DNA of 64,000 bases from Rhizaria sp. SCN 62-66 (GCA_001724265.1 MEDY01000010.1:1-64000), one strand, 5' to 3'. Shown: positions 1,963 through 63,527, counted from the stretch's first letter. The notes: generated from the letters alone by a model not told the origin. Numbers and translations are program-made.

Positions 1963-4900
1963 ATGGACCCGTACTCCAGCTCTGTTGGTGCTTACCCGGG
2001 TGCCATCCCGGGTGCCCCATACGCTGCAGGTCTCCCCGATCCTTACTCTGCCTCCGCCATGTCCGCATACGGCCCCGCGTACCCTGGATCGATCAACGCG
2101 ACTCTCCCGATGCACTCTACCTCCTCTCTCCAGCAACAGCAGCTGTTGCAGCAGCAACAGCAGCAGCAGCTGCAGCACCAGTCCGCGCTGGTCCCGCTCC
2201 CCGTCTCGACCCTCCGCGAAGACTTCGTGCAGAACGCCATGCGTTTCCTGCAGAACCCCGAAGTGGTCAAGTCTTCCCCTGCGACGCGCGTGGTGTTCCT
2301 CGAGAAGAAGGGGCTCGCCGCCGGCGAGATCGCCGAGGCGCTGCGCCGCGTGATGCCGCTCGCGCCGGAGACCGCGCTCGTGGCCACTGCCGCCAGCAAA
2401 GGCCAGTCCGCCTCCGCCGCGGTTGCCGGGCTGGCCGACCCCGCGCAGTTCGCCGCCGTCACCGCCGCGGGCAACGCCTCTGGCTCCGTCTCCGGCTCGC
2501 ATCCCCCGGCTGCGACTAGTGACAGCGCCGGTGGCCTCTCGACGGTGGCACTGCCAGGAATGGTTCAGGTTGGCCCCACTTTGTTCGCGTATCCGTACCA
2601 GCTGCACCCCAGCGTCGCCGCGACCGCCGCCGCCTCCCCGGCATCCTCAGCCGCGGCCGCTGCGTCTTTGGCGGCGGTGGCCCGCCGGTCCCCCGCTCGC
2701 GCGTCGTGGCTCTCTTCCCTGCTCTCTGCGCTCACTGTTGCCGGGGCCGCGGCCGCGAGCATCGCGCTCACGCGAAAGCTGCTGCTGTCCTCCGCCGACG
2801 CGGAGCCCGGGGCCGCGAGCGGAGCACTCGTACCCGTGGGCTCCAACAGCAACGCAGTCTCGCAGGGCGCGGAGGGCGGCGACGTCCTCAGACTCACACA
2901 TAAGCCCGCTTCAGACGCCGCGGGCATCAGCGCTGGTCTCGTGAGTGCGCCCGATGCTGTGGCCATTGCAGCCGCTGCCTCCGCCGCCGCCGCCGCCGCC
3001 ACCGCCGCCAACGGTCCCCGCCCCAGCCCTTCCAACAACAACAACAGCACCGGCTTCGCCAACAACGGCGGCTTCCGCAGCCTGAGCGGCGGCAACAACC
3101 CGACGACCCGCAGCAGCGTCGCTGAACTGGTCGTCGAGTCCCAGGAGGACATTTTCATCAAGGGCTTCAACGAAGTCAAGGCCACGATCACGGACCTCAC
3201 GAGCGCGCTCGCCGCGACTCAGAGCGCCGCCGCCGGTCACACCGCCACCCTCGCGTCTCTGGCGCATTCGTTGGCTCCCGTGGCCTCGCTGGCGCCGGCG
3301 TGCGATGCCGCGCAGGCGGCCGCGGTGGGCGCGCAACGCGCGGCCGAGGCCGCCGTGGCCGCCGCCGACAGGGCCGCGGAGCGCGCCGCGGCCGCCGCCG
3401 AGGCCGCCGGAGCCGCACCGGCCGACGGAGGCGCCGCCGCAACCGCGCGCGAGGCTGCGCTCGCCGCGACCGTCACCAAGGCTGCAACGGACGCTGTCGA
3501 GTCGGCCGTGGCCGCCGCTGTGACGGCCGCGGTGGCGCGCGCGGTCGCCGAGGTGGAGGCGCGCGCCGTCGAGCGGGAGGCCGCTCGCGAGGCCAAGGCT
3601 GCGGCTGCAGCGGCAGCGGCGGAGGCCAAGGCTGCGGAGGCTGAGGCGGCGCGCGGGGGCGAGGCGGCGTGGGGCAAGCGTTTCGACGCGCTGCAGGGCG
3701 CGCTGGAGGCCGTGGAACAGATCCTGGGCACGCTCGTGCAAGTGCAGGTGCAGCAGCAGCACGGCGGCGCGGGAGGTATCAGCGCGACGGGCCTCGTAGG
3801 CAGCAGCAGTGTTAACAATGCTGCTGCGAGCGCGAGTGCGGATGCTGCGAGCGTGAATGCTGCGACAGCAGCCGCTGCGCATGTGGCCAGCGACGCTCAG
3901 GAGGAGGGAGACGGCGCAAGCGCAAGCGCCACCGCCCACACGAATACTCGTAGCGACCGGGACGTCAAGGTCAAGGCTTAGCTTGTTTCCGCAACTGCTG
4001 CGAACACACAGTCAACCTTGCTGGCAACGGCTCCTCTGCCCTCCTCATCCTCGTCATCGTTGTCGTCATCGGTGCTGTCGCCGTCCACGGGCTCCGACTC
4101 CGCCGCCGTCACCGCCCCCGCCGCTAGCACCACTGCCGATGCTGCTGCTGCGGCACCTGCGGGCGCAAGCACCAGCAGCAGCGAGCAGAGCGAGTACCTC
4201 TCCGCATGGGTTGCCAACTCGAGCTCCAGTTCTCTTGTCCCCAATCCTTCGGCCTCCAGCTCAGACGGCAACGCTGCTGCCGCCGCAAACGGCGTGTCTG
4301 TCAACACCGCCTCGAGCTCCACAGTGCCTGCCCCCGCCTCCGCGCCCGCCCCTAGCACCGGTGCGAGCTCAGCGCACACCGGCGCTAGCGCGGGCCACAC
4401 CGCAGCTCCTGCGACCAGTGTCAGCACTAGCGCTGCGACCGCGAGCACGGGGTTCACGTGGGCCGCTGACGTCACTTTGCCGGCTACGCGGCCTGTGACG
4501 CCGCCTCCCGTCAGCACTGCATCATCAGCATCAGCCACTGCTCCGACTGCTACGACGGCAACGGAGGTTGCTCGTGACGTGCCCACCCACACCCCGAGTA
4601 ATCCTTTCACCGACGGCACTATCTACAACGCCGCCATCGCCCGCCCCGGCGTGAGCGCGGAGATCTCTCTCCCCGCCGACCCCACCGCGGCGACCGATGC
4701 GCAGTGTGGGCTCCAGCTCGCGGCCGCGCGCGCCGCCGTCGCCGCGTCGCTAGCCGACATGCGGATGACGGCCGTACGCGAGTTCACGGCCTCCTTCGAC
4801 GCCGCGCGCGCGCAACGTGACGCGTCTGCCGCCGCCGCCGCCGCCACAGCCTCTACTGGCAGTGACAGCGCTGCGGCGACGGAGGCCAAGGTGGCGGTGG

Positions 4901-5397
4901 CCGGCGGCGGCGATGACGGCAGCGGCCTCACTGTCACCGCCACCACCACTGATGCCGAGCTCTGGGAGGCCGCTCGCGCGACCGAAGTTGCGTACGCAGC
5001 GAAGACGCTGCTGATGTATCTCCGCAACATCACCAAGGACCCGACCAAGTCGACCTACCGGCGCATCAGCATCACCAACGCAGCGTTCCGGCGCATCTCC
5101 CAAGTCCCGGGCGTGGAGCGACTCTTCACGGCGCTGGGTTTCGAGTCGCGGCCACCCTTCTACGAGCTCTCGGCGGACCCCGTGCTGCCGCTGGGACTGA
5201 CAACGGTATTCCAGCTTGCCAACAACAGCATGGGCAGCGCTGAGATGGACGAGTGGTGCACCAAGGCCAAGGAGGCCGTGTTCGCGGCGCGGCTGACCGT
5301 GGTCGGGGAGGTGCTGCAGAGCGTCAGCGAGCTGCAGACGGAGCTTGCGCTGGGGCCCAGGGGCGGGAGCGTCGAGATGCCGCCGCCGCTCGAGTGA
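1963..5397 (+). CDS. PEX14: Peroxin Pex14 (Pex14_N, hydrophobic segment, coiled coil) fused to a C-terminal PUB domain; in-frame TAG at 3979-3981
   Basis: Pex14_N motif LREDFVQNAMRFLQNPEVVKSSPATRVVFLEKKGLAAGEIAEALRR and PUB motif KTLLMYLRNITKDPTKSTYRRISITNAAFRRI...LFTALGF. ORFs 1960..3981 and 4018..5397 share one frame, separated only by TAG, with no AT-rich spacer. Ends TGA. Confidence 0.85.
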
Positions 5398-5895
5398 GCG
5401 CTCGAGTGAACGTGACATTGTCAGACTGACGTGTAAGATGAAGCTGAACTGTCATGTCGTGGCTTGACCAGTCGTTTTGTTGTTCCAAGTGATTATTTGA
5501 AAATATTTATGCTATATGGCCAGCGGACATTACGAATACATATCTATGATTTCGCTTAATCGTAGTCCACTCGAGTTGTGCATTGTTTTGGCAAAGTTTG
5601 TGACTTGTCACGCGTTTGTGGTCGTTTGGAGATTTGTGTCTGCTCGAAGCAACTTCATCATGTCTGACTGATTAACAGCATTTAATATATTTATATTAAT
5701 ATAACATATACACTGCAATGCATTGAATATTATATCTTACGACAAATTGACTTGACGATCAAATGTAGTCGCTAGGTCTACGCAAAGTCCCACTTTTGAC
5801 ACAACAACTCATGCTGCCCCTGATTCCTGTATTTCCCCACATAGCCCTAACAAAAGGCATTAACTGCTTGTCAGATCCCCTTTCGCACAAACTTC

Positions 5896-7860
5896 ATGTT
5901 ACGTTGCACACCGGCTGCACTTCGGTTTATCCCTTTGAACCCGGCAACCGTGTGCGAGATATCTTCCTTGCTCCGCGCCCGACCCCGCTTCACCCTCCGC
6001 GCTGCCAAGCCCCACTTGCCCCTCTCGTCTCTCACCACCACGCAGCAGCAACCATGCGGAGCTCATGCCACCTGCAGTCTGGCGCATAACGCGTTGGTGC
6101 CGCTGACCGGCGTCGGCCAAGAGACCGCGGGCGCCGTGTACGGGCGCAGCGCGTTCGCGCGCGCGGGCGACGACATTGGCGACCCCAGCTTCATCTCCAC
6201 CGCGCTCGGCTCGCTGCGCACGGCGCCCACGCCCACGGCGCGCGCCGCGGCCGTGCTCCTGCCGCTGTGCCTGGACGGCGGCGTGCCGTCGGTGCTGTTT
6301 ATCCAGCGGTCGCGCAGTATGCGCCACCACCGCGGGCAGGCGGCCTTCCCGGGCGGCATGCTCGACAGTGAGGACTGTGGCGACCCGGTCACGTGCGCAG
6401 TGCGCGAGTGCGTCGAGGAGATCGGGCTGGGTGTGAAGCCCGTACTGTCGAGCGCGTTCTTTACGCAGGGCGCGATCAGCCGCTTTGTGCCGGTGCAGGA
6501 GCGGCTGGCAGCTCTCTCGCGCGACGCTCACGCCGTTCAAAGCACCAGGGACCTTAGTGTCAGCGCTGACGGTGGCGATGGCCACATGTCGATGACTGCG
6601 ACGTTTGCGATGTCGAGGACGACGACGAGGGCGCCCAGCTCTATTTCAGGCTCCGACTCGAGCTCTAGCTTGAGCTCGAGCTCTGGCGCTGGGAGTGCTG
6701 CTGCGGCGACCACGCAGACCACTGAGCACAAATATGCAACCTTCACGAAGATGACACAGACGACAACAAGTAGAGCGCCGTCTCTGGGTACTTTGCGGGC
6801 GACTCGCAACGGCAACCACAGCGACTGCGAGCAGTGCAGCGACTCTGAGTCCAGCAGCACCGCAGATCCCGCTGCCCACGGTCTCCACGGCACCGCCGCC
6901 GACGCCGACGACCCGCTTGGGACCGACTCCGACGCTGGGTCGGACGTCGACGCCCTTCTCGCCTCGACGCCGGACCTGGCCGTCCTGGGGCTGCACCACG
7001 ACTGCTCGACGAGCGAGCGCCACCGCCCCGACGGCACCGTCATCACGCCCGTCATCGGGCTGCTCGCGCACGACGTCACCGTCACGCGCTTCGCGCTCTC
7101 GCAGGCGGAGATTGGACGCGTCTTTTGCGTGCCGCTCGAGGCGCTCGCCGACCAGTCTAAGTGGGGGGTATACAAGGGACGGCCTAGCTTTTAGCACAGG
7201 CTCGATGAGGGGTACTTAGTGTCCCGGCAAGGGCACTTGGACACTGCTGCACCCGGTAAGGGTATGTCGTCAAAGCCGCCTCGTGTCAAGTGCCTGACGG
7301 ATGCTGTTGAGGCGCTGACGAAAGCGCCTTACAACACCAGTCCAAGCAGCAGCAGCGCGACAGCGGTTGATGCGGATGAGACGAGTGCTGTTATTATGCA
7401 TTACCCGTTTTCACTGGATATCGATGACGATATGTGTGACGGCACTCTGCAACCAGCCTCTACAACAACAACAACGACAATGACAGGGCACATGGGTAAC
7501 GTAACGACAACGACGAGTGCTGCGGGGGCAGCGACAACGACAACGACGATGAGTATGATTAAAACGTCCTCTGTCGTTGCGTCACCGCTTGGACAACAGG
7601 TGCAGTATCAGCCGCCAACTCGGGAGACATTTCCAGGCCTTGCGGCCAACGCCACAATTGTGGATGTGAAATTATCCGCAGCGCAAGGCACTGATACTGC
7701 TGATCCGAGTGCAGCAGCTGCTGAGAAGACCGTGAGCAGCGACAATGTTGGCGTTGTTGAGGCACATGACGAAGACACATCACGTCGTGTTGTTATCTGG
7801 GGAGCTTCAGCGTGGATTCTGAGCGTGTTCATCAAGCAAATCGTCCATAAGGTGAAGTAA
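5896..7860 (+). CDS. Nudix CoA pyrophosphatase (NUDT7/NUDT8/PCD1 family) with a possible mitochondrial presequence; in-frame TAG at 7192-7194
   Basis: AAVLLPL...LFIQRSRSMRHHRGQAAFPGG..D...CAVRECVEEIGL (NuCoA motif and Nudix box), VITPVIG and EIGRVFCVPL lie before the TAG. The family C-terminal motif VIWGASAWIL lies after it in the same frame. Ends TAA. Confidence 0.88.
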
Positions 7861-8263: not shown

Positions 8264-11200
8264 TTATTGTTGCATGCAACCCTTGTCCTTCTTTTTCTTC
8301 TTGTCATCCTCGGCAGCTGCAGCCGGAGCTTCCTCCGGAACAGCAGGAGGTTGTTCTTGCTCATGCTTAGTCCCACTTGCCACACCAGCGTTTGATGCAG
8401 TAGCAGGTGCCTCGGTCTCAGCAGCACTGTGCTGTTGCTGCGTCTCCGGTTGGTCAGTAGCGGGACCAACCTCAACGCTGCTAGCACTGCCAGCAGAGCC
8501 ACTCACATCATCAAACACCGTGGCAGTCGCCGCGTTCTGGGCAGACTCACTAGTTTCGCCAGCACTTGAACTCGCACTTGTGTTCTCAGGAGCAGCGGAA
8601 GCGAGACTGCTGTCTGAGGCAACAGCAGCAAACTCAACGCATTCGTGAATAGTCTTGCGAACCTCAGTATTATTGCTCTCCTGAGCTTTCTCTTCAGTCT
8701 GGGCATCCTTAGCGTCATCATCTTCCTCAGCCTCGCCCGACGACGGGGGCGCCTGGTGCAAGTAGTAGGACCTCGACGGCCGCGCGCTCGCCCCTGCGTC
8801 GTCCCCCGTCGCGCCCGTCGTGCTGTTCGCGACTCTCGTAGAGCCCGCACCGGCGTTGATGGTCGGCGCGCGACCCCACCCGCTGCGCCAGTCCACCTCC
8901 TGCTCCGCCGCCGCACGGGCGAGGTCCTCTTTCTCCTTCGCGGCCGCGGCGGCCTCGGCGGCGGCCGCCAGCGCGGCCTCGCGCGCGGCCGCTGCGGCAG
9001 CCTGCTTGGCGATGTTGGCGGCGACGACGGCCTCTCCTATGTGTGCGTGCAGAGCAATTGATCAAGCAACGAGTTGAACAGGTTAAGTGATGAGTGGGCT
9101 CGTTTCAAAATTAAGCTATATGTAAAGGAAACATAAATATATCACGGATATGAATGATGAGTCCAAGAATACAAATGCAGAATAGATCATAGAAAGTAGC
9201 GTACCCGGGTAGACGAGCGCGAGCGCGACGGCGGCCTCGTTGTCGTCCTGCTCCTGCTCCCACACCGGCGAGTCCCAGGGCAGCAGCGTCTGGATCTGCA
9301 TTGACGTCGCCGCGGCCGACGACCCGGGCCGCACGAGCGCCGCGGTCGCGGCGGCGGCGGCGGGCTCGTAGTCCTTGTTGTGGTAGTGGCTCAGGCCGTG
9401 TTCATCGCTTGCGGTGCCGGCGCCCGCGTTGCCGGTGCTGTTGTCGGCGTTGGCCGCCTGCCGCGCTGCGAGCGTGGCGTACTGCGGCGACGGCGACGTG
9501 GCGCGCGAGAAGGAGTCGCAAGGGAGCGACGGCGCGACGCGCACGACGAGACCGTCGTCATCGTCATCGTCGTCGTCATCGCCATTATTACCGCCCTCAA
9601 CGACACTCGCCGTAGTGGATGGTTTGGACTCGTGAACAGTCGCGTCGCCGTCGTGGTTCTCAGCAGCAACATCATCGTGATCGTCATCATTTGCAGTAGC
9701 ATGCTTTTCGTTCACAATTTTCTTGCTGCTGCTGCTACTGCTCAGGGCGTTGATGTCTTCGCCGTTGGCCACCGCACGCATGCGGGCCTCGAGCTCGCGC
9801 TCCAGCGCCTCCTCCACCTCTGCGTACTCCCAAACCTGATCCGCATTCACTGGCAGCGGCGCCGAGAGCACCATCGACCGCCGCGCCAGCGCTGCGGCCA
9901 AGAGAGACGGAGAGTCGGGCGCTCTCTCGACCACAATGGCACTGACGCCGCTAGCGTTGGCGGCATTAGCGCCGGCACTATCCTGGTTACCGGTGGCGGC
10001 CATCTTTAGCTGCGACTGCGAGCGGGACTGCGCCAGCAGCTGCAACGTGCTGTTGCTGTTCACTGGCTCGCCCGCTGCGCCGTTGAAGATCGCGGGCGCT
10101 TGGCCCGCGGCGGCGACGCGATGCGGGCGCCTGGGCGACACGGCCGAGAGCGCGAGCGCACACGTCTTGAGCGGGCCCTGGTAGCCCAGCGTGTGCAGCA
10201 GCGCGCCGTCGATCTGCAGCGGCGACGCGTACACCTGCACTGTGCTAAGGTCGCTCGACTGCCCGCGCCCGTGGCCGTGGTGGCTGTGACCATGGCCGTG
10301 GCTGTGAGAGTGGCCGTGAGCAATGTCGATGTTGCTGTCGTCGCCGTCGTCATTGGTGCCGTGTAGGCTCTCACAGTCGCTGCCCACCTCGCGACCGTGA
10401 ACGTGAGCGGAGTCAGGTTCGCCATGGTGTTGCTGATGATGTTGCTGTTGCTGCTGCTGGTTGGCGGGCACGGGCGTGCCGGACCGCGGCGTGTCCGACG
10501 GGGACGACGGCGGCCTGACCTTGGCGAGCGCCGCGGCCGACACGGGGGCCGTGCTACCGGGCGCCGCGGGCACTGCCAGTGGCGTGCGCATCGGCGGCGG
10601 CGGGCCCCAGCTGCCGCGGACACGCACGGCAGGGGCGGCGCCGGCGCCTGCAGTGCCAGTGCCGTCCTGAGTTGACCGCTCGTTGTGCGCGTCACCGTCG
10701 CCCTGCTGTTGCTGTTGCTGCTGGTGTTGCTGGTAGCACTGCTGCCGGTAAGCCCTCCTGTCGCGCTCCTGCTACTCCTGCTCCTGCTCCTGCTGCTTCC
10801 GCAGCGTCCGCGCCGCGCGGCTGCCGCGAGGGCTCTCGTCGCGCTTGCCAGCCGCGCTGCCGCCGCCGCCGCCGCCGCCGCTGTGGCTGAGGCTGCCGCG
10901 GCGCGTCCCGGCGTACTCGACGCCCGCGCTGCCGCTCCGGTAACTCGCTGCGTGGTCGTTACCGTTCCCGGAGTTGGCCGAGTTCGCGGCGCTACTCTTG
11001 CTCTGAAGGCAGTCGGCGGCGTCCCACAGCGTGAAGTCAAGCCCGGGCGTGGTGACGAAGCCGGCCGAGTTGATGTAGCGCTGCTTGCCCGGCAGCGGCA
11101 CGGCCAGCTCGGCGATGCGGGCGGGCAGCGGCCGCGACACGACGCCCCTGTCCTTCCCGCTCTTGGCGCTTGGGCCGGCATGCTTGGAGTCCGTGCCGTT

Positions 11201-13540
11201 CGCACTGCTGCCGGTCGAGAGCCCAGTGGGCGCTGGCAGCGGGCGGCCGAGCAGCAACTCGCGCCGCCTGCGCAGCAGCAGCTCGTCGCTGGCGGCGCTG
11301 GAGCGCGCGCGCGCCGAGACGTGCAGCTGCGCCTCGGTGCGCTGCGGGTGCGGCGCGGCGGGCGGCAGGTGCGCCGACAGCGACGCCAGCAGCGCACTCA
11401 TTGCGGAGGAGGATGTCACCGGCGCGTTGCTGTTGTTGTTGCTGCCAGGGCCGCTGGCCGAAGCCGAGGCCGGCTGCAAGTAGACCGAGGCCGCCGCGGC
11501 GGTGGCCTCGAGGCGGGACTGGAAGAGGAACGAGTCGGCGCGGGACACCGAGGCCACTGCAGTCAGACTAGAGCGCTTGGACTGGGACCCCATGGGGCCC
11601 GCGGCCGCAGACGCTGTCCCGGTAGCAGTGGCCGCAGCCGCAGACGCGGAGTCGGCTTGCGATTGTGCGCCAGCGGGCGGCGACTGCTGCTGCGGTAGCT
11701 GCTGCTGTTGTTGCTGCGAGTTGTTAGGGCGTGCAGAAAAAACGTCACCAGCAATGTCCGCAATAAGTGCGTCATAGCGCGCCTTAAAGCGGTCGAGCTG
11801 CACGCCGTGCGAGACTGCAGTCGGGGCGATGGCGGCCAGCACTTGCTCGATGCTGAGCGCTTGACGCACTGCAGTTCAAAAAGAACGAACCAAAACCACA
11901 GATCCACATCATGAGAAAAGTATACATATAAACAATTTAATCAAATGCAGATAATTCAACACTACCAAGAATAAAGGCAACAAATCCACAGTTTCCCGTT
12001 TTGTACCTTGCGGGAGCGGGACGTCGACGATGAGCGGCGCCTTGACCAGCTCAGCCAGCATGCGCGCGTGCACCGTTTTGACCATTCGGGCCTTCTCCTT
12101 AAGCACTAACGCCTGCTCCTGCACTGCGGCGCGCGCGGCCTGCCGCTGCTCAGCGCTCTCGAGTTTCTTCTGCAGGTTCTCTCGCGCGGCCTCGCGGGAT
12201 AGCTCGACGTGGTAGGCCGCCTCGCGCGCGCGCTGCATCTTGGCCTCGTTCTCGGCCTGCCTGCGCGCGCGGTCCTCGGCCTCCAGCAGCTGCACGGCGC
12301 GCAGCTGCTCCGCTGCGCGAGCCTCGGCCGCGGCGCGCGCCGCGGCCTTCTCAGAGATGCGCTGCTCCGTCGCGCGCACGCTCTCCTTGTACTGCGACGA
12401 ATGCGCGACCACGCGCGCGCCCTCGCTTGCCGCCGCCGCCGACGCCTTCGCCAGGCTCTCCTGCCGGCGCGCTTCCGCCGCAGCTAGCCGGGCCCTGGCC
12501 GCCTCGGCCGCGGCGGCCGTGGCGAGCGCCTCTTTTGCCTGCTTCTCGCGCTGCGCTTTCGCGATGGCCTCGGCGGCGGCGTCGGCGCGTTCACGACGCA
12601 GCTCGGCGTCACGCTCGTTGCGCTCCGCTGCCACCGCGGCCGCCGCGGCTGTGCGCCGTTCAGTCTCGCTCTTGATGTGTTGGGACCGCGCCGCGCGCGC
12701 GTTGTCGAGCTCCGCGCAGCGGCGCTGCACGGCGTCGAGGCTGCTCTGTAGCGACTGCGCGCGCGCGGCGCGGTCCTCGTCGCCGGCCGCGCGCTTCGCG
12801 GCCAGCGCGGCGGCCGCGGCGGCGTCCTTGTCGCGGACGCGGCGCGCGCGCGCTTCCGGGGAGGTGACGGTGCCCGTCTGGCGCGCGATGAACGCAGCGA
12901 GCGCGGCCGAGCGCGGGGATACGCGGTGGGGGTTGTCTTCGCTGTCGCTTTCCCATTCCATCGTGTGCGCGTCCGGGTCCGCGGCGGCGCCGGGGCCCTT
13001 GCCGCCGGCGGTGCTGTTGTTGGGGCGCGTTGCGAGGCGCGGGAGCGAGGCGGGCGCTGCCGCGGTGGACGACGCCGTCGATGCCCCACTGCCAGAGCCA
13101 GCGGTTGCGGCAGCTGTCGATGCTAACGGCGTGCCAGTGCGCGCCGTGCCGCTGCCCGCGCCGGACGCGTTGCTGGGCTTGCTGCCATGCAGTGCGGTGT
13201 GGTCAATGGCGGCCTGCACGCGAAGCTTCTCGTCCTTCTTGGTCGCAATGGCCGCGATCAGGCGGTTGCATAGCTCATGCTCGTGGCGGTCAATTCCGCT
13301 CAGCAACTCATTGCGCTCGCGCTCCACTGCGGCTGCAATGTCAAAGCGGGTGCTGGACGATCGGGACAAGCTCCCCGGTTGCGATTGTGGACCTGTTGCG
13401 GCTGTGGAGGCTCTTGAAGGCCCGGCGCCGGCTGCGGTGGTAACTGTCGGCCGCGTATGCCGCCGGGAGGAGCCGGGGACCGGGGGCAGCACGGGGGCGA
13501 CCGGCTGGGGCGGGGGCGGGGACGCCGCGCTAATAAGCAT
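8264..13540 (-). CDS. ~1,656-aa unknown protein: N-terminal coiled coil, low-complexity middle, C-terminal polybasic + CaaX-like end (KKKKKDKGCMQQ); in-frame TAG at 10774-10772
   Basis: Model complement(join(13540..12007, 11868..9205, 9036..8264)) = 4971 nt. Both GT-AG introns are phase 1 and join four listed ORFs in frame. Ends TAA. The start codon is tentative. Confidence 0.7.
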
Positions 13541-14259
13541 AACTGTGAATACGGGGGTGAGGCCCGGAACAATGATCCTCTCTGGTCTATGAAAGGGAGT
13601 GCTGCTCTTGTTTTCGCGCCGCAATGGAAACAAGGGTGTTAAGGGGTAGTCCTCTGGAAGAGAATAACGCAAGTTGAATAAATTTGAGTGAGAAGGTAAC
13701 ATATAATGAGATTCGAATATATCTTAAACACTTGACATATATTGATTAACGATGAAACGGGCTCGATAAGGCGTGTTCAAGCGCAGGCCCTGCGAGCCGT
13801 TTCTGACCTCCTAACAGACCGACCGAACCAAGAGAGAGACAGTCATGAGCCGAAGGAGGCAATGAGTCGACGTGGACACGATCTTTCTGAGAGTGTAAAT
13901 CGTCAGACACTGCCACTACACCGATATCTGAGTGGTTTTACGATGGTAATCAACTTGTAGTTACTGATCATATTATCCAGCGTGTGTGGAACTACGTTTT
14001 CTCTCTCTATTATGTGTCATAACGATTCCCGGCTGCATTCCGATGTCTTCCTTAGGGCCCTTTCTTTAGTCACCTCTACAGCATTAAAATCGGTTTGAAA
14101 TTTGATGAGCATGCTATAGGAGTACATTATCATAATCGTGCTATAAAAAAATCCGTATGGTGTCGTATTTGATCGACTATTTTCACGCCGTTTCTCCCCT
14201 TCCATTTCCTCACCTGATTGCCCGTGTCTCTTTCTACCTCTCTTTGGTTCTTGCAGACA

Positions 14260-16218: not shown

Positions 16219-16708
16219 ATCAGTGAGCTAGTGAGTGAGTAAGCGTCGCAAAGCATGACAAGATGTGTTGCATTGCATTCGCATCTCTTTGTTTTGTCCT
16301 TTGCGTTCGTTTTGCCTTCGCCTTTCGCTCTTTAACCTTTGAGAGTCGTCAATTGTTGCGTGTTTTAAAAGACTCTAGAGGGCTTCATTTTATATTTGTA
16401 TAGTTGATTTCTGTCGGATTGTTTATGAAACGGACACCTTGCGTGATAGTTACTTTATTACGCCAATAAAGTTCCATTTCTGTTGATATAACTTGTTTTT
16501 TAATTTCGTGACAACATTTGTGGTGAAACCTGATAGAGCCGAGAAGCTGACGAATGCGACATTTCGTACACTTCAGAAATCAAGTACTTTAACGACAATA
16601 GTTAGTATTTTACGCTTGATGAACGTACACTTTGACCGAATATCTCTCATTCTTATTAGACTTTCTGAAAACTTGTTTATCTCTTGCTATCGGTCAGACA
16701 AAGGGAAC

Positions 16709-17695
16709 ATGCACCCTGCTTCACCAGAGGAGCAAGGTGCGGCCCATATCGGCGAAGAAAACCGCGTGATTGGCTATGAGGTTCCTGTCAAGATACACAA
16801 CATTCTCCGCAAAGCTTTCCCGCCTTTGTTTGGCATGGACCGCGGTCACCAGCTTGACGGACACGTCTGTCTGGGTGAACTCGACAAGAAGATCGAGAAC
16901 ACTGTTGGCGGTTCCTTGCTTTATGGTGAGGTTCTGCCTGAGGGCGTGTCCAAGCTCTGCGATTTCGAGCACACACACATCATGAACGCGTTAACCGTGT
17001 TTGACTACGGCATGGGCACAGGCAAGCTCTGCGTGCAGATATTCTTCCAATTCCCGCACCTCGTCCGTGTCGTCGGTGTCGAGATCTCCCCCTCGCGCTA
17101 CGACATCGCCGCCGCCGCGCTGCGCCGCCTCGCGCGCTGCCGCCGCGGGCTCGCTATTATTGCCGACTCGCGGCACTCGTGCGTGCTGATCGACACGCGC
17201 GGGCACCGGCGGCGCGTGCTCGAGTTCCGCTGCTGTGACGTGTTCGATTCACTGCATCCGCAAACGCTCATGGCCCAGGGCGACCCCCACTACAACGAGG
17301 CCGCGGACATCATCTTCATGAACACCGACTTTCCCGCCATGTGCCAGGAAAACCTCGGCAAGCTCTTCCACAGCGTGCGCAACGGCTGCCGAATCGCGAC
17401 CTACAGCGACGTCAAGAAGGAGTACCAACGGCTCGTGAGGGAGCTCAAGGGGAAGCCGCCGAGCGCGACGAGCGAGGGCAGTGGCTCGGTGCTGTGCCGC
17501 GCGACGTTCCCGCTGTGGCAGCACACGGTGAACGTGAGCGCGGAGGAGGACCGGTTCCGGACGACGTGGTCGACGAAGCTCGGACACCACTTCCACACAT
17601 GGACTAAAGGGTCGCTCCAGGCCGGCCACCACACGGTGGCGCGGTCGCCGGCGGACACCCCGGGCTACCGCGCCAACGCTACCGCCGCTACTGCC

Positions 17696-17732
<37 letters not shown>

Positions 17733-53800: not shown

Positions 53801-56800
53801 CGCCACGCTCGCGCCCTTCGCCGCCCTGTCTGCAGCCGCGCCTGCTGTTGCGCCGACCGCGGCCGTCGCGCTTGCTGAGGCGGAAGCCAGTCTGCTGCGT
53901 GCGTTCGCTCTCTGCCCTGCTATCCCGGTTACGCTTGTGCTCCTCCGCCGCTGCCGCACCGCTGCGCGCGCACTTCCGGTTATGCTGTCTGCGGCCGACG
54001 CGTCTGACCTGAGCACCTGCACTGTCAGCGGCAAGAACGGCGTTGCTAGTAGTAGTAGCGCTGACGAAGCGCTCTCGCTGCTCTTGAGCTCGCAAGCAAC
54101 GCCATATTCTCGCGCCACAGCGTTCGCGACCCCCGTGCTCGCTTCAGCGACGCCGGCGCTACTCCGCGCAGTCTCGCTCACTACAACGACCGGTTCCCTT
54201 AGCGGCGCTGGCAGCAACGGCGCTGTGACGTCTCGCGGCGTTGCCGCACTGGTGTCCGCACTTATGACGCGTGGCGACCGCTCGCTCGCGCATCTCAACG
54301 TCAGTGGTAACCCTCGTCTTGGTGACACTGGTCTGGCGCTTCTGCTGCCTCTTCTCTTCCCTTCATCTGCCTCCACAGTGTGCAGCTCAAGTCGTGTTAC
54401 ATCGACCGCAGATGCCCGCCCTGCCATCCGCTCTCTGTCCGCGTGTGGCATCGGTGCTTCAGAGTTCTCTGCAACCGCTCTCGCTGCCGCGCTTGCGTGC
54501 GCGTCGCCACGCTTCACCTCTCTCGAGCGCCTCGACCTGTCTTCAAACCCGCTCGGCGACGACGGCGGCGCTGCGCTTCTCACAGTCATCCCACGGTCCC
54601 CCGCCGGCCTACTGCTGCGTTCAGTCTTCCTGCGCGAATGCGACCTGGGCCCCAAGTCCGCCCGTTCTGCGCTGCGCGCGCTCGCCGCGTCGCCGTTGCT
54701 GGCCCGCGTGGACATGGAGGCCTGCCCCGCGCTGATGCATGCGCCGGTGTGGGCGCCCGGCGCGCTGGTGCCGCCGTTCTCGGCCGCGCTTGTCGGCATG
54801 CCGTTCGGCCCCCAGTCGGGCTCGCTGGGCGGCCAGGTCGAGGCGTGCGGTATGGAGCAGCGCAGGCAGTGGGCGCACTGGCAGCATGTGGTTGACGCGA
54901 TTCTAGCCACGAACATCGCGGTCAAGGGCGCTGGAAACGCGAACTTTGCGGATTTTTTGAGTGGCAAGACATCGCCGATGTTGTTTGCGCCGCTGCCGTC
55001 GACGGCCGCACTGCTCCGCGTGCGCGGCCTAACTTCTGATGCCGTATTGACGCAGCTGCACAAGCACATCCTGTCTCTGCCGATCGAGGCCTACGTGACT
55101 GCCGTTGATGCTGCGCTCGCCGACCCTCTGCGCACGCCCACGGCCGGCGATCGCGACAGCGCGCATGCTGTCATGATGCCGGCCTTCAACGGCAACATCG
55201 GCACTTTTGGTGCTCCTTCCACTGTTTCCGCATCTGTTGCTGTTGCACGCGCGCAAGCAGCGGTCCATGCGTTCGCAGTGTTCCGTGCCATGGGCGGGCA
55301 CTTAAGTCAAGCTGCGGCCCGCCTCGCGCGCGCTGTTGCTACGATCCGCACCGCGCGTAACACCGCGACCGGCGTTTATGTGGCTGCGACCGCGTTCTCG
55401 ACTGCAGCCACGTCGCTTCCGCGCTGGCTCGCCGCCGGCACCGCGCAGCCACCGTTCTTGCTGACCGCGTACACTGAGCTCGCACTGCTGCTGCCGCGCC
55501 TGCTCGCGCTCTGCGCTCACGTGCCTGCCGCCGCTGCAGCTCCCGTCATCGCTCAGCCTGCCGGCATGTCTTCTGACGCCGCCACGCCGCTGTTGACTGC
55601 CGGTCTGGGCAACATCGCGGTTGCGATGCAGCAGCCGTTCCTGCCCCTGTGGCTTCTGTCCGCGGCTGAGCTCGCCGCCTCTGTCACGAAGCACGTCTCT
55701 GTCCGCCTCGCTGCGGCCCGTGACTTGGCGTCCGGTGACGAGGCCCGTCTCACTGCCGCCGCGAAGCGCGCCAGCAATAGTACTCCCACCGCGACCGCGA
55801 ACGGGGGCGGTGGTGCGGACAGCGCTGCCGTGTCGGTGGCCAACGTCGGCCTGCTTGACGAAGCGATTGCTATTGTACACGCTGATTTTGGCATGATCAC
55901 GAGCTTTACTACGACTGCGCTTTCGCCGACCAACAGCTCCGTGTCGGAGGCGCACCACGCCGGGTCTCAGGATCACAACGTTGTGGCCACCGGCATGACT
56001 GCGGCTGAGCCCGTGTCGCCGGTCGCCAGCACCGCGTTCACGCACGACGACGACGACCTGGAGAGTGCCTTCGCCCGCGTTCAGTCTGCGCCTGTACCGG
56101 CCCCCTTGAAGCAGTCTCCGTTTGCTCCGTCCACGATCGACCAGGCTTCATCCTCCGCGGCTGAGACTGCAGCTGCGACTACCGCTTCATCGTCCGGTGC
56201 AGCCGCCGCTGTTTCCGCACTGCGTGGCGGGCTCTGCCACCCGCGCCACCTGCCTGTCGCGCTGCAGACTGCGATTGCGCGTGCGCGCACGACTGTGGGC
56301 GCGTTGGGTCCCCGCCGGCTGCGCTGCGTCGACGGACTTGGACAGCTGCGTCAGAAGCTCTCAGCGCTCGCGACCGCGGCGGCTGCCGTTGCTGCGGAGG
56401 CCGCAGCAGGCGCGCGCGACGAGTCGGAGCGCGGGCCTGCGGTGACGGCTGCGCAGACACTGGGACTGCTCGCAAACACCGTCGGTGAGGTCGCGCATAA
56501 TGGCATTCGCGGCAAGGAGCAGATCGCGGCGCTTGTTGCGATCGGCGTTGACGAGGCCATCGCAGAGGTTCTTTGGGATGAGGAGGAGCATGAGGCTGCT
56601 AGCAGCAACAACAAGTCTTCTGCGAAGCACGCTGGCGCTCATGTGAGCAAGCTCTCGTTTGAGAGCGATGCTAAGACGGACACTGCTAGCACTGCCGCTA
56701 GCGGCATGAAGCCGACTGAAGCAAAGGCAAGCAAGTCCGCGTCATCCAACCCCTTTGATGATGGCAACTCTGATGGCGAGAAGTCTGACGCTTCTGATAA

Positions 56801-59800
56801 GAGCGATGGCAGTGATGCCAATGGAGATAGCGACGGCGACATCAGCAACCTGTTTAACAAGAAGGCTAGTAGTTTTAAGAAGCTTGCTACTGCTGATTCT
56901 GACTCGGAGGCCGAGGCTGACTTCGATCTCAACTCAGACTCAGACTCCGACGATATTAACAGTCATAAGAAGTCCACTGGCGTGCACGCGTCTTCGTCGC
57001 CGCGCGCGACCGTGGTCTCCCGCGCTGAACACGCTGTGCGCCGCGCGTGGCGGTCAGTCTATTCCATCACTGGTCTCAACCCCAACGCTGTGCATATACA
57101 CAGTCAAGCGCACGCACACGGCGACCCGTTGTCTCCGATCAAGCCGTCGGCGCTCGACCGTTTCCTACCATGGCGCCAGAAGCAACGGCAGCAACAGCAG
57201 CAGCAACAGCACCCTCACCAGCAGCAGCACCAGCAGCAGCCCGGTGGCGGCGTGTGGGTGCCGCAGTCGCTGCGCCGCTACGAGGGCCACCGCGCCGTGC
57301 TCGCCCGCCGCCCGCTCGCCAAGGCGCTGGAAGACCTCGCCGAGATCGCAGAGGAGGGCCGCGCCGTGCTGCGCTCGCTCCCGCGCCACTTCAATCTCTA
57401 CACACCCGGCGCGCCCGGCGCTCCCGGCGACGTCAACGCCGGCGCCGACGCCGAGTGGGTGAGCGAGCCAGGGCTGTACGTCTGGTCCTGCTTGTTCGCG
57501 CAATTCCACGCGCGCATTCTCTACCTCTTTGCAGCGCGCTTCCACATGCCGCTTGGCGGCTCATCCTCCAGCACCGAATACTCACCGGCGGACATCCTGC
57601 GCTTGTCGGCCTGGCTGCGTGAGTTTGCCCGCACGCAGCACGCTATTGCTGCCGCCACGCTGCCCGCTGCCGCACCTGCCGCACTGTCCGCTGGCGCCGC
57701 TCAGGGTCCCAAGGGCACTGCGACCGCGCTCGCGGCGTTGATGGCGTACTGCCCGTCGTTCACCGCTGTGACGCGGAACGACCTGCCCCCGCCTCCGCCG
57801 CGCGCTGCTGAGGGCGCATACGTCTCGTCGCATCAGGCCGCGGTTGCTGCGGCGACGCTCAAGATGCCCCGTGGCGCGCTGTTGCGCGCGGCGCCCGCGG
57901 CTGTTACCGCCGCGGCAGCGCTGCTCGCCGGCGCAGGCACACACACGCATCACCTGATGTACCCGCTTACTGTCACTGCCACTGCGGCTGCCGCGGGTGC
58001 CCATTCCAACGCTATTGCGAACTCCGTGACCGACAGCGCCGCGCTTCCCGCTATCTCGCCACTGTTCGTGCTCAACTTTGCCCGCACCGACATGCCCGCC
58101 GCGGCGTGCACCGCGCAGACGCTCGCGTACGCGCGCGCTGTCGACTCGCGCTACGTCGCCGCCACGCGCCTGCGTCTGATGCAGTGGGCGTCGAGTGCGC
58201 TGCGCGTCGAGCAAGACCGCTTGCTCACGCTCGCTGCGCCTCCGGTCACCGTCGACGCGACCGCAGCCGGGACCACTACGGGCGCTGAGAAGAGCGCCGG
58301 CGGCTCTGCCACGGACAAGGCTGGCCAGCGTCGCGTGCTGCGCCAGCTCACTGCCTCGGGCCGCCGCATCAACCACACGTGCCAGAACGCAGACGTGCCC
58401 GCTGGCGACGACTGCCACTGCGACGTGTTCGTGTATGATTCGCGCGGCTTCGTGCGCACGACGGCACCGGAGGACTTGTTCTCTGCGCTAGCTGTGGCGC
58501 TGCCTGAGCTCTGGCGCGCCTCGCTCGCAGGCCTCTCTGCGCCTGCTCTTGGTCTTGGTGATGCCACTGCTGGCGCCTCGAAGGTCGTGCGCAGCAGTAG
58601 TGGCTATGATAGCTGCAATGGCGCGACCGTTAGTGTGTATGCGTTGTCTCGTCTCACGCACAGCTACCTTGAGGCCGCGCCCGCTGCTGATGAAAGTGAC
58701 TCAGCGCCCTGTGCCACGACTCTCGCGTCCGCCGCGCTTGACGACGGCGCCGACGCCGTTGAGCTGCCCTGGCCTGTGCCGGGCTCCTTCATGCTCGCAG
58801 CGGTCGCGTGCGTCACGGACGTTGTCAGCATGTTCCAGCGCAACCTCACTGCGCTCTCTGGCATTTCACCCGCTGCAGCTGCTGCTGCCGCCGCCGCTGC
58901 TAACACAGTCAACTCCAACGCAACTGGCATTGCGATCGCGCCTCACCGCGCCGCTGCTGCCCTTGCCGCCGCCGCGTCGTCTGGTGCGCTGTCGCTTACG
59001 CAAGCGCCTGCCTCTGCTCACGGCACGGCTGGTGATGCAAACGGCACTAGTGGGAATGCAGCGGCTGCGGGTGGTGGCGCGTCCTCTGCCGCTGCCATCA
59101 CGCGCTGGGCGCAGATGCAACGCGCGCTGGAGACCGCGCGCGCCGCGCACGCTACCGCTGCTGTTGCAACTGCAACGGCCAACGGGAGAATGAATAACAC
59201 AATGGGCCACGGTGCGAGTGCCCATGAGAGCACCCTTGAGTCTATCCAGAGTGCGATCGTGTCGTCTGGTCCCGTTTTCCCTGCTTTCTTCACCACTGCC
59301 ATCAACGCTGCCACGAACCACGGCCACGACGAACACAGCAACGCCGCGCCGTCGCCCGCCTCTGTTGCGCGCATCACAAGTGACCTGCTCGGCGCCGCCG
59401 GCACGCTGCCTCGCATCGCGCTTGTGGTGCGCTACTTGCACGCGCAGATCAACAACTGCAGCGAATATGCGCGCCGCCTGGTTCGCGAGTGCGGTGAGAA
59501 GGCTGTGGCGCATATGGACAGCACGTACTCTACGCTTCTCCGCAAGAACAGCAGTGTACGCGGACAGACTGCAGTTACTGCCGCGACGCAGAGTGTCTTC
59601 TCTGATACCATCGATGCATGTGCGAAGGAGCCTTCCGGCTTGACTTTTTACAGTGAGGTCTTCATTGACGCTCTCACTGCAGCACGCACTGCTGCACAGA
59701 AAAAGTCGCTCGTTAAGACCGTTTCTAACTCAACATTGACTGCATCCGACGCTGTCGCCACCGCGCGCTTGCGCCGCGCGTACCACTGCGAACGCTCTGC

Positions 59801-62800
59801 CGTGCGCGCCGCGTTCGCTCACTGTGCCGCGCACTTCACGGGCGAGACCGTGGCTCCCTCTGCACAGTCGTCTGCCGCTATCGCGAACGCTGCTGCCTCC
59901 GCGCGCACCGGCTCCGTCGCGCAGTCTCCGTCCGCCGCGGCCTCGCACGCGCTGACGGCGGCCACCCGCACTGTAACTCTGCTGCCCGTTGGCGACAGTG
60001 TTGCGGGCGCCTTTGCCAAGAGTCTGCTGCGTCAGCTCTCTGCGACGCTGCAAGCCGTGCTATACCACACGCACACGCACGCTAACACCGGTTCCAGCGC
60101 GGGGCACGGCGAAGGGGCGCTCTCCGCACTCGCCGCGACGCTCGGGCTCTCGGCCCCCTCTGACCCCACGCCGGTCTCGCTCTCAGCGGCCGCCTCGCTG
60201 CCGCGCCGCCTCGTCGCCGCGCTCTCGGGCTTCGCGGCCTCGGACCCGCTCGCAGCCGCGATGCGCGACGTCCTAGCCGGCGACGCCGCCCGCGCCGCCG
60301 CAGCCACGCGCGCCGCTGGCGCCCTCTTCTCCCCGTCCTGGGCCTTTGAAGACAACGCCGCGCTCGCGTCGCTGCTAGCGCGCCTTACCGCGGCCGAGAC
60401 CGACGCCGCTGAGGCCCTCAGCGCCGCCCGCGCGCGCGTCGCCACGGTCATCACCGCGCTGCGCGGGCTCTACAACGAGCGCGCCGCGCCGGGGCAGGCC
60501 ATCGACGGCGCGCCGACCGTCATGATCTACAACCCTGACGAAGGCTCCGCTGCAGGTGGCGCCGGCGCTGGCGCGGGATCGCTGGCGGGCGCGGCACGAC
60601 TGGGCGCGCTCTGGGGCAGCAACCTGGCCCCCGCTGCCGCTGCCGCGACTGCCGCCAGCGCTGGTGCTGCCGCAGGTGGTCTTGAGCCTGCTGGGCGCTC
60701 GCGCGGCGGCGCCGTCGCCCCCGCGTCCGCCACCGCTGCTGCGGACGCTGCACCGGCCCGCACGCGCGGCCTGAGCGTTGCGACGGCGTTCTACAACAAC
60801 CGCGAGCGCGCTGCTACCGCTGTGCGCGGCCGCCGGCTCTCGACCGTACTCGCCACCGGTAACAGCGGTGCTGCGGGTGGGTCGTCCGCGTACCGGAGGC
60901 AAGACACGATTGCGGAGGACGACGAAGAGGACGAGAACAACGCCGACAGCGAGAGCTCACGCAACCCTTTCGAGGACGACGATAATAACTCCGCACCTGG
61001 CGCATCCGCCTACAGCAACAACAGCAGTGGTGTGGCTGCGATTATGGTCACCTCCTCGCTCACCGCTGGCGACTCCTCGTCCTCCGCCGTCGCCGCCGCG
61101 CTCCCCGCCACGACGCTTGCGACGCTTGCGCTGGTCTCGGCGCTGTGCTCCGGCGCGATTATGGACCGCGTGCGCTCGCCCGCGCACTGCGCCTTCATGC
61201 TTCGCGCCGCGAAGCAGCTCTTCCTGTCCGCCTACGCCAAGGCATTCGCGGCCTACGGCGGTTCGGAGCACCTGCTCGCCGCGCTCAAGGCTACGGTCAA
61301 GGCCGCGCCGAAGAGCGCCCCCGCGGTTGACGCCGCCACGCAGCGCGCCAGGGAGCTCGTCGCCGCGGGTCCCGCAGCCGCAGCCGGCGTGCTGGGCAAG
61401 CACCTGACTGGGGACGACGCGCTGTACCGCTCGCTGTTCGCGGCGCTGACGGCGGAGGCGTCGGCCGAGCTCATGGAACAGCGCGAGTCGATGCTGCGCG
61501 CGCAGAGCCTTAAGCTCAAGAACAAGAGCAAGGCGGGCAATGACGATGACGATGACACCTACGAAAGCGGTGAGATTGGCGACGATGACGAGGAAGACGC
61601 GTTCATCTGGCTCTCGCAGATGCAGACGCAGATCCAACTCGAGAACGCGTCGCTTCTCCGCCGCGCCCGCGCTGCCGCTGCTGCTTCTCATCAGAATCAT
61701 GGAGATGCCGCTTCTGGTGACGCTGTGGACGACGAAGAGCAGGACGACGAAACCCCTGCGGCCGAAGCCGTCGCCGTCATCAACGGCGTCTCGACCTCGG
61801 AGCACGACAACAGCGTCGCGTCCTCCACCGACGCCCGCGCCGACTCGATCATCGCCGCCATCGCGGCCCTTATTTCCCCCAGCGCAGCCCCTGCGGAGGG
61901 CTTTGCGACGCCCGACGAGGCCGAGGCCGCGCTCACCGCGAGCCTCATCGCGCGCCTCCGCCTCGGCTCCCAGGACGACTCGGCGCGCCTGCCCGGCATG
62001 GGGCTGCTGGCGGCGCTGCCATCGCGGCTGCCGCTGCTGCTGCCGGGAGCCGCAACCGCGCTGGACGAGGCCGCGTGCGGCGTGGCGCTCTACCTCAGCA
62101 AGCGCGGCGACCTCTCGCGGCAAGCGCGGCACCGCGTTGTGGCGGCGCTGCTCAGCACCGTCACCACGGGCTACGGCGCCGCGGACCTGCCCCCGCTCAC
62201 GGTTACCGCGGCGGACATGGAGCACGCTGCGCAGTCGGCCGAGGCGACCGTGGTCAACGTGCTGCGGGCCACGCCGGGCAACGCCACGGCTGCGCTGCCC
62301 GCCAGCGACGCCGCCGCGCTGCTGCCGGTCGCCCTGTGGGCCGCGGTGCCCACGGACGCCGTCGCCGCACTGCTGCAGCGCGGCGAGCGTGCGCTCTCTG
62401 AAAGCGCGGACCACAGCGCTTACCACGACGACAGCGGGGACGCCGTCGCTGCGGCTGTGCCTGGGGGTGGGCTGGCTTTGGAAGCGACGCGCGTACTCGT
62501 CGCCTCGATCCGCTCGACGACATCCACCGCCAACAACCACAGCCATGGCCACGGCCACAATAACAACAACAACAGCAACAACGCTGCTGGCGCTGCGCAT
62601 GACAGCGCTGCCCACAGCAACCCGATTGCCAACGCGTCTCTGGTGTCCAACTCCGCGCTGGTCTCGCTGACGGCGCTGGAGAAGGCCCTCGCGCGCGGCG
62701 CCGACGCGCTCAAGACGCAGGTCGGCTTGCTGATGCCAGTCGCGGTCATGCGCGTGGGCGCGCCGTCCCTCGGCGCGCTGCTTGCGCCTGACGCCACGAC

Positions 62801-62953
62801 CGGAGGCGGCGGCACGCCTGCTGCGACGCATGGGGCTGGCGAAGGAGAGAGTCTGGGCGATAAGGCCAAGGCGCTGTTCTCGAAGTTCAAACACCGGAAT
62901 CAGCCGCAGCAGCACAACGAAGCTCGCGCTCATGAACAACAACAACAGCAATC

Positions 62954-63003
<50 letters not shown>

Positions 63004-63089
63004 AACAAGCTCAGACAGAGACGCAGAGTGACGCCGGCAAGGTTGTGAATGCGGCCAAGGAGAAGTTGAAGAACTGGTTCAAGTGGTAA
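35830..63089 (+). CDS. Giant ~9,053-aa Ala-rich protein with two RI-type LRR clusters, five NPF motifs and a C-terminal exocyst Sec6/EXOC3-like region
   Basis: join(35830..35866, 35965..63089) = 27162 nt. Exon 1 MASLLKNKLLSI is followed by a 98-nt GTACGC...CGCAG intron in the correct phase, then a 27,125-nt stop-free exon. LRRs at ~45680-46300 and ~54285-54730; Sec6-like motifs at ~57470-62150. Ends TAA. Confidence 0.8.
52800..53180 (+). repeat. Degenerate peptide repeat (G/A)PRGS(V/I), about a dozen copies
   Basis: Translation reads GPRGSVARGSV...GPRGSVSGPRGSITAAPRGSISGPRGSISAAPRGSV...GPRGSIALARGSI...GPRGSL...VRGSV. Confidence 0.9.
62935..63009 (+). repeat. CAG/CAA microsatellite encoding poly-Gln
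   Basis: QQQQQ S followed by about 18 Q near the C-terminus of the giant protein. Confidence 0.9.
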
Positions 63090-63527
63090 ATGAAACGTAC
63101 TCGAGCTTGCAGTGTAACACTTCATGTTTTTTACAAATTAAGATTGATTCGGGTAATTCCATTGAAATGATAGACTTTCATATGTACTTCTATGTTAACA
63201 CTTTTCACATTTAAATAATACATTTTTATTTTCATATCTCTTCATTTTGAACCACGGCTCATTTTTGCTATTTTTGTCGTAAGCATCAGGCCACAGGTCG
63301 TCAATAGGAAGCTAGAAGAGAGAGAGCCTTTCTGAAAGTGAGATTGCATCTAAAGTTTTGATTCTTGATTTACGACTCACAACATCCGTGACGTACAGTG
63401 TTGTTACGATACCCAGTGCATATTTAATCTACAATTTACAGATATATTATATACACTCGTAAATAACTCAATCATAACCGTGTACACCTTGATTACAATC
63501 CGACCCACGCAGATTTCCGTTCCGGTC

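Follow-up and report, generated by a model that had tools for sequence, protein, structure and literature searches.

In-frame UAG codons, and the base that follows them, in a 64-kb DNA stretch from an uncultured GC-rich eukaryote

The 64,000-nucleotide stretch MEDY01000010.1:1–64000 (assembly GCA_001724265.1, deposited as Rhizaria sp. SCN 62-66; hereafter referred to as the window) raises the question of whether the codon TAG still ends proteins in this genome and, if it does not, whether its decoding depends on the next base. Six in-frame TAGs stand in long reading frames, at 3979, 7192, 21272 and 30779 of the given strand and at 67 and 10774 of the opposite strand (Table 1). The initial annotation of the window had proposed that UAG is ambiguous and is read as an amino acid mainly when followed by C or CA. 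We worked with 13 gene models, about 18,450 codons in total, in which long frames were called with TAA and TGA as the sole stops. These models contain six TAGs but no TAA or TGA in frame, and the 12 genes whose ends lie in the window terminate with TAA (six) or TGA (six), never with TAG. This distribution fits a reassigned codon, not errors or decay. TAG is very probably a sense codon. We propose that UAG would no longer act as a stop in this organism but as a rare sense codon, most likely for glutamine (Gln), with UAA and UGA left to terminate. A plain reassignment of this kind, with an incidental pattern of C after TAG, is the explanation that we favor, by a modest degree of belief.

Coding sequence beyond the in-frame TAGs

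The TAGs at 3979, 7192, 10774 and 21272 are clearly internal to genes. Past each of them the same frame remains coding for 663–2,346 nt. The G+C content at third codon positions (GC3) beyond these four TAGs is 0.78–0.82 (0.53 in g2, the Nudix hydrolase gene), compared with about 0.40 in 3′ untranslated regions (UTRs). Codon log-odds scores beyond them range from +0.04 to +0.40 in frame, whereas the other frames yield −0.46 to −1.05 and UTRs −0.6 to −0.9; for g7, which encodes a PHD-finger protein, the score is partly circular, as this gene was included in the codon reference table. An AT-rich spacer, beginning within about 40 nt of the terminator, is present at all 12 real gene ends and follows none of the four internal TAGs. 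In g1, the 750 nt past TAG 3979 score +0.40 in frame and −0.65 and −0.48 in the other frames. In g3, the 1,566 nt past TAG 10774 are coding (GC3 0.81, score +0.29) and are then spliced in frame into exon 3; with both introns removed (GT at 9204–9203 and AG at 9038–9037 for intron 2), the gene forms one frame of 1,710 codons. The segment past TAG 21272 in g7 extends for 2,346 nt at a GC3 of 0.82.

The best-supported sense TAG is the one at 7192 in the Nudix hydrolase gene. A single open reading frame (ORF) of a relative (P0122, 529 aa) is collinear across the site, with GRPSF-A-HQL where the window has GRPSF-TAG-HRL, and both proteins carry the C-terminal sequence VV(I/V)WGA(S/T)AW(I/M)LSVF(I/L)KQ(I/V)V past the TAG position (E = 3e-10). 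The part before the TAG aligns with residues 28–87 and 105–137 of NUDT7 chains in the PDB, which are 196–236 residues long. Because the alignment has reached only chain residue 137, at query residue 415 and 18 residues before the TAG, the Nudix fold is unfinished at this point. The CoA-pyrophosphatase profile of NCBIfam covers the N-terminal core of the g2 protein only, an NCBIfam scan with its last 86 residues alone gave no match, and an AlphaFold model of the protein, built from a two-row alignment, was unusable (mean pLDDT 28).

In g1, a Pex14 N-terminal domain and a PUB domain share one frame, with TAG 3979 between them. A HMMER search with g1 gave two fragments resembling those of close relatives, P0126 (52% identical, E = 8.6e-38) and P0127 (41%, E = 1.1e-14), and P0126 lacks a Met at the position from which PUB could be translated as a gene in its own right. 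Among the 120 HMMER matches listed for g1, none joins Pex14_N and PUB. The homolog search with g7 returned a sole match, its own TAG-truncated form.

At 67 and 30779 the TAG may instead end the gene; neither composition nor codon scoring separates the sense and terminal readings of these two. Beyond TAG 67 only 21 codons are visible before the window edge, and these 63 nt score −0.26 in frame, between the coding and the UTR values, while at 30779 a TGA comes eight sense codons later. The initial annotation had placed six internal TAGs in the interval from 3979 to 63090. Five fall there and the one at 67 does not, and the description as internal holds for the four sites above but not securely for 67 and 30779. 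The reading that TAG is decoded in these proteins and does not end them is supported by the Nudix evidence, by the coding signal past four TAGs and by the 0/12 genes that end in TAG.

The TAG at 7192 has identical letters in assembly X3 (record 10), and that at 21272 in X3 (record 16) and in X4 (record 24), the latter from an independent 2025 run of another study. No variants are listed at the TAG sites in other assemblies; this comparison covers contigs, most of the joints found in it are repeat noise, and the uncovered parts are uninformative. Contigs of 300 nt from poly(A) libraries lie downstream of two TAGs, at 4524–4811 and 21552–21874, and none bridges a TAG; RNA libraries of this kind may contain DNA. 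As fractions of gene length, the TAGs stand at 0.59 (3979), 0.66 (7192), 0.54 (10774), 0.56 (21272) and 0.99 (30779). All five measurable sites are thus in the second half of their gene, for which the chance is about 0.03 (n = 5).

The amino acid probably encoded by TAG

Given that TAG is a sense codon, Gln is its best reading, and one that we hold with good confidence. A Gln codon comes directly after four of the six TAGs and directly before one. To evaluate this quantitatively, the neighborhood of each amino acid was modeled on its codons in the window genes. The likelihood of four Gln followers in six is 2.3e-2 if TAG stands for Gln, and no other residue exceeds 1.6e-4, a difference of about 150-fold. 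Furthermore, two TAGs occupy the place of CAG in CAG-type repeats (CAG CAG TAG CAG at 30779; CAG GAG CAG GAG TAG CAG GAG at 10774), and these, judged from the sequence, look like C-to-T changes of CAG. TAG codons that derive from CAG by such changes would keep the surroundings of Gln codons. Decoding would then involve a tRNA with the anticodon CUA, arising most simply from tRNA-Gln(CUG), and an eRF1 blind to UAG.

Several points count against this assignment. The sole TAG site that can be aligned, 7192, has Ala and not Gln in the relative, at a variable position. The Gln meaning is drawn from neighbor statistics and not from conserved alignment columns, and it is confounded with the idea that CAR is selected after TAG. 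A scan for tRNA genes found none in the window, which also lacks the eRF1 gene.

The Ala at the aligned site could suit a UAG that encodes another residue, such as leucine (Leu), as in the rhizarian exLh and in some ciliate metagenome-assembled genomes (MAGs), or glutamate (Glu). Leu reads plausibly at several sites (LALL-L-QD, PAL-L-QL), and a UAG = Leu code does exist, as described in the available parts of two reports (PMC5304391, PMC11687900). Nevertheless, the neighbor likelihood favors Gln over Glu by about 150-fold and over Leu by more, and the two TAGs in CAG-type repeats stand where CAG is expected. We therefore consider a residue other than Gln unlikely. Pyrrolysine, which to our knowledge does not occur in eukaryotes, was set aside as a meaning of TAG.

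The base after TAG and the base after the stops

The initial annotation had noted a complete split in the base following the codon (the +4 base), with C after every internal TAG and a purine after every true stop. A recount reproduced both halves. The codons after the six TAGs are CAA, CTT, CAC, CAG, CAG and CAG, with C in 6/6 and CA in 5/6, and the 12 terminators are followed by G (seven) or A (five). Two further stops on L002, a contig from a 90% relative, also have a purine at +4 (TGA-A and TAA-G). Against a purine share of 49% over the initial 100 nt of 3′ flank, 12/12 has a p value of about 2e-4, and the purine preference at the TAA and TGA stops is solid and statistically real. It is unremarkable in itself, because a +4 purine is the ordinary efficient termination context in eukaryotes; it is found at roughly 60–70% of stops in typical eukaryotes. 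Setting C after TAG directly against purine after the stops pits coding sequence against the opening base of a UTR, and these differ anyway. Two terminators are backed up by a second stop, in frame after g1 (TGA GCG CTC GAG TGA, 5395–5409) and out of frame after g8 (TAA followed by gcacTAA, 25690–25699).

The C half of the pattern has to be set against the surroundings of ordinary Gln codons. The codon after an in-frame CAG or CAA (n = 661) begins with C in 44.6% of cases (48.8% in the TAG-bearing genes) and encodes Gln in 22.5%. On this baseline, p is 0.008 for 6/6 C (0.014 with the TAG-bearing genes only), 0.04 for 4/4 C at the four secure sites and about 0.02 for 5/6 CA, and these values overstate the evidence because the pattern was picked after looking. 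A CAR codon directly follows 4/6 TAGs, as against the 22.5% of Gln expected after Gln codons. In all frames of both strands, TAGC is the commonest TAGN (277 of 664 sites). The surroundings of Gln codons (45% C, 22% Gln), together with a sample of six, thus account for most of the apparent rule that TAG is always followed by C. They largely account for the CAR excess as well; the initial annotation had itself cautioned that Gln clustering raises the chance of a following CAR. These results suggest that the pattern behind the +4 rule is weak, was picked post hoc and is largely explained by Gln clustering; a real context effect strikes us as improbable.

Some features of the data do weigh against plain reassignment. 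The p value of 0.008 for 6/6 C against the Gln baseline is one of them. In addition, of the Gln-type codons only about 1% are TAG (6 vs 661, with CAA at 20%), and TAG is absent from the 9,212-codon g13, which has 233 Gln codons (probability of finding none, about 0.08). This low usage, skewed toward the second halves of genes, is far from neutral equilibrium and fits a recent change or selection against TAG, and with it a residual cost of decoding. With such a cost still in place, selection could plausibly favor a context in which termination is weak. Finally, two of the six TAGs, 67 and 30779, may be terminal. Both are followed by C, and as terminators they would be TAG-C stops, which speaks against the proposed context rule.

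A rare and costly TAG would be expected if UAG were only partly reassigned, with eRF1 still competing for it, so that a sense UAG survives at +4 C (often in CAR) and the stops keep their +4 purine. Such a scheme is supported by the contrast of 6/6 C after TAG with 0/12 C after the stops, by the fact that both followers other than Gln begin with C where 28% is expected, by the scarcity of TAG and its absence from the largest gene, as if it were costly, and by the 12/12 purines, plus 2/2 in the relative, which exceed the share in typical eukaryotes. However, no TAG followed by a purine was seen to act as a stop and 0/12 genes end in TAG, and for want of such stops there is no evidence of ambiguity. 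Moreover, the pattern was chosen post hoc on six sites, four of them secure, and Gln clustering explains four of the six followers. The tobamovirus signal UAG-CAR-YYA, which had been invoked for these sites, is incomplete at all of them: YYA is found at 0/4 CAR sites, the next codons being GAT, GAG, CTC and CAC. Nor is a dual meaning of UAG reported for the phyllopharyngean ciliates with UAG = Gln in the available parts of PMC11687900. Ambiguity of UAG, and decoding that depends on a UAG-C(A) context, are therefore not upheld by the window; a partly reassigned UAG is an outside chance. We give a similarly low standing to its fuller version, in which UAG would have been captured recently, with eRF1 still contesting it, and would be tolerated only where a C at +4 makes termination less efficient, chiefly in Gln-rich, weakly constrained tracts of the second halves of genes, while selection would hold the TAA and TGA stops to a +4 purine with unusual strictness.

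UAG might instead have remained a stop and be read through by near-cognate tRNAs in a programmed manner, yielding the short and long isoforms that the initial annotation had envisaged. A +4 C and a following CAR are known to favor readthrough (CARYYA; PMC3542737, from the available part of this review), the five measurable TAGs stand at 0.54–0.99 of gene length, and the TAG of g1 parts Pex14_N from PUB, domains that are usually in separate proteins. Against this, a short Nudix form would be without its conserved C-terminus, the extensions of 220–780 codons carry a full coding signal, the signal lacks its YYA, as noted above, and TAG is the sole stop of no gene although readthrough would be needed in at least four, and up to six, of the 13 genes. 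Programmed readthrough is thus quite unlikely.

Artefacts (assembly errors, pseudogenes or unrecognized introns) are the least credible explanation, since TAG alone and never TAA or TGA occurs in frame, other assemblies carry identical letters at 7192 and 21272, and the TAG flanks are GC-rich (50–86%), unlike the five introns (GC 0.31–0.42), even though one apparently in-frame TAG, at 9118 of the opposite strand, is truly intronic and 7192 can be framed by a GT...AG stretch of 27 nt. The TAG at 9118 was rejected as a seventh sense TAG and is the only one that lies within an intron, an AT-rich one running from GTACGC to CATAG (GC about 0.33). The 27-nt mini-intron was rejected as well, the relative's protein being collinear through its nine codons.

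Gene content, relatives and known codes

Plain reassignment of UAG, to which we return, has to be placed in an organism. The window has a G+C content of 63% overall (56–68% per 4-kb block) and consists of GC-rich coding blocks with AT-rich spacers of 100–530 nt between them. Its DNA is eukaryotic, with a HMG-CoA lyase gene interrupted by AT-rich introns. The best explanation for its source is a GC-rich eukaryote, uncultured and poor in introns, that is found in metagenomes of bioreactors and wastewater, where the same DNA recurs over several years and studies. In a large protein database the nearest matches are metagenome proteins, and the best named matches of the HMG-CoA lyase, from cnidarians, oomycetes, bacteria and EukProt entries, are 63–68% identical. 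Pfam domains in the window comprise Pex14_N and PUB (in one ORF), NUDIX, PHD, saposin and GDSL lipase, DOT1, zinc fingers and NAPRTase.

Table 1. Gene models, in-frame TAGs and introns of the window, numbered from its first nucleotide
Feature	Coordinates	Strand	Stop at	Remarks
g0	610..2	−		ORF running off the window edge
g1	1960..5397	+	5395	Pex14_N ... PUB ORF; TGA, then G
g2	5896..7860	+	7858	Nudix hydrolase (CoA-pyrophosphatase-like), long low-complexity inserts; TAA, then G
g3	8264..13702	−	8266	Exons 13702–12007, 11868–9205, 9036–8264; 1,710 aa; TAA, then G
g5	14218..16218	+	16216	Acyloxyacyl-hydrolase-like; TAA or TGA, then purine
g6	16493..17938	+	17936	DOT1-like; TAA or TGA, then purine
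g7	18284..23623	+	23621	PHD-finger protein; TGA, then A
g8	~24340..25692	+	25690	HMG-CoA lyase, 3 exons; TAA, then purine
g9	~26628..26281	−	26283	TAA or TGA, then purine
g10	27434..30808	+	30806	Low-complexity protein; upstream exon ends at GTACGT donor near 27310; TGA, then A
g11	32125..31175	−	31177	TAA or TGA, then purine
g12	35225..32844	−	32846	Zinc-finger protein; TAA or TGA, then purine
g13	35451..63089	+	63087	9,212-codon ORF, 233 Gln codons, no TAG; TAA, then A
TAG of g0	65..67	−		Then CAA; in low-GC stretch 1–89
TAG of g1	3979..3981	+		Then CTT; between Pex14_N and PUB parts
TAG of g2	7192..7194	+		Then CAC; best-supported sense TAG
TAG of g3	10772..10774	−		Then CAG; within CAG GAG CAG GAG TAG CAG GAG
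TAG of g7	21272..21274	+		Then CAG
TAG of g10	30779..30781	+		Then CAG; within CAT CAG CAG TAG CAG CAC CAC
Intronic TAG	9116..9118	−		TAG-CTT, apparently in frame; intron 2 of g3, not coding
Intron of g8	24471..24656	+		Limits approximate
Intron of g8	24930..25071	+		Limits approximate
Intron 1 of g3	12006..11869	−		
Intron 2 of g3	9204..9037	−		
Intron of g10	~27310..27465	+		

Five introns were recognized, all AT-rich, two in the HMG-CoA lyase gene and three in g3 and g10 together. Their donors are unusual: GTACGC (twice), GTACAA, GTACGT and GTCCGT. For g9, g11 and g12, the coding GC3 and codon score are found on the chosen strand, and overlapping alternatives have neither. The saposin and GDSL-lipase protein of g5 matches clusters of animal acyloxyacyl hydrolase in an Atlas search (feature score 0.97; TM 0.73 over 514 residues). 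The very long g13 has almost nothing recognizable, with a single LRR_6 repeat and a sub-threshold TFIIA match in Pfam.

A metagenome scan with the clade-specific tail of the HMG-CoA lyase retrieved L001, a 2.4-kb contig of the same organism, L002 (90%, 5.9 kb) and one unrelated match. The three genes of L002 contain no in-frame TAG. Its HMG-CoA lyase gene (2221–3369) is without either intron and adjoins an acyloxyacyl-hydrolase gene in opposite orientation; gene order differs among the relatives. In an 86% relative (P0002/P0122), the Nudix and lyase genes lie on one contig of 6.8 kb, while 17 kb separates them in the window. Among the 80 matches listed from a scan of genome contigs with P0005, all are titled as bacterial genomes or MAGs. 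Viral contigs yielded nothing closer than relatives of 52–57%, which were left out of the analysis.

Because gene callers stop at TAG, the proteins of this organism are systematically truncated in databases (P0121, P0123, P0124). The entries in question, with P0125, comprise a Nudix protein that ends at 432 aa, a PHD protein of 980 aa, a Pex14 protein of 672 aa and a separate 272-aa tail. Seven contigs, up to 205,739 bp in length, are on record for the truncated Nudix protein. A +4 rule that held across the genome would be direct evidence of a stop codon passing through an ambiguous stage, for which six codons are only a lead. A contested UAG, if real, would represent an ambiguous intermediate of reassignment that still exists today, in a free-living eukaryote of high G+C content, and pressure of mutation toward AT could not then drive UAG reassignment in such a GC-rich host. 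UAA and UGA as the stops, and a code of the NCBI table 15 type, are likely, as is a new lineage for such a code. A literature search of limited coverage turned up no report of UAG reassignment in a wastewater eukaryote.

Reassignment of UAG only is known, from the available parts of the reports cited here and below, in few eukaryotes, namely one fornicate, one rhizarian and some phyllopharyngean ciliates (PMC5304391, PMC11687900). The organism of the window would be a further, apparently unrelated case and would add an independent origin. UAG = Gln with UAA and UGA as stops is described for Iotanema spirale (PMC5304391) and for Hartmannula sinica and Trochilia petrani (PMC11687900). The window resembles these three in having UAG alone in frame, UAA and UGA as terminators and Gln as the best fit. 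The known UAG = Gln cases are one fornicate and two ciliates, whereas the present DNA is GC-rich (63%) and intron-poor, with peroxisomal and mitochondrial genes, among them Pex14 and HMG-CoA lyase. The share of TAG also differs: it makes up about 1% of Gln codons here and occurs in 4–6 of 13 genes, compared with 18.5–31.8% and with 78–84% of genes in the two ciliates (PMC11687900).

UAG = Leu is described for the rhizarian exLh (PMC5304391) and for phyllopharyngean TARA MAGs (PMC11687900). As in the window, exLh has reassigned UAG alone and kept UAA as a stop, and its UAG is rare in highly expressed genes (PMC5304391), to which the low usage seen here is similar. In contrast to these codes, Leu fits the neighbor statistics of the window far worse than Gln.

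Codes in which a codon is both stop and sense are those of Condylostoma, Parduczia, the karyorelicts and Blastocrithidia (PMC4967479, 10.1101/2022.04.12.488043). According to the available portions of these sources, the meaning is set there by nearness to the 3′ end of the mRNA and the poly(A) tail, not by the +4 base, and the codon demonstrably ends genes, whereas 0/12 genes end in TAG here. The tobamovirus-type signal, given as UAG-CAR-YYA in the accessible part of a review (PMC3542737), shares CAR with 4/6 of our TAGs and YYA with 0/4, and it lets ribosomes pass a true stop part of the time in single viral genes, as opposed to the roughly half of a cell's genes that carry an in-frame TAG in the window.

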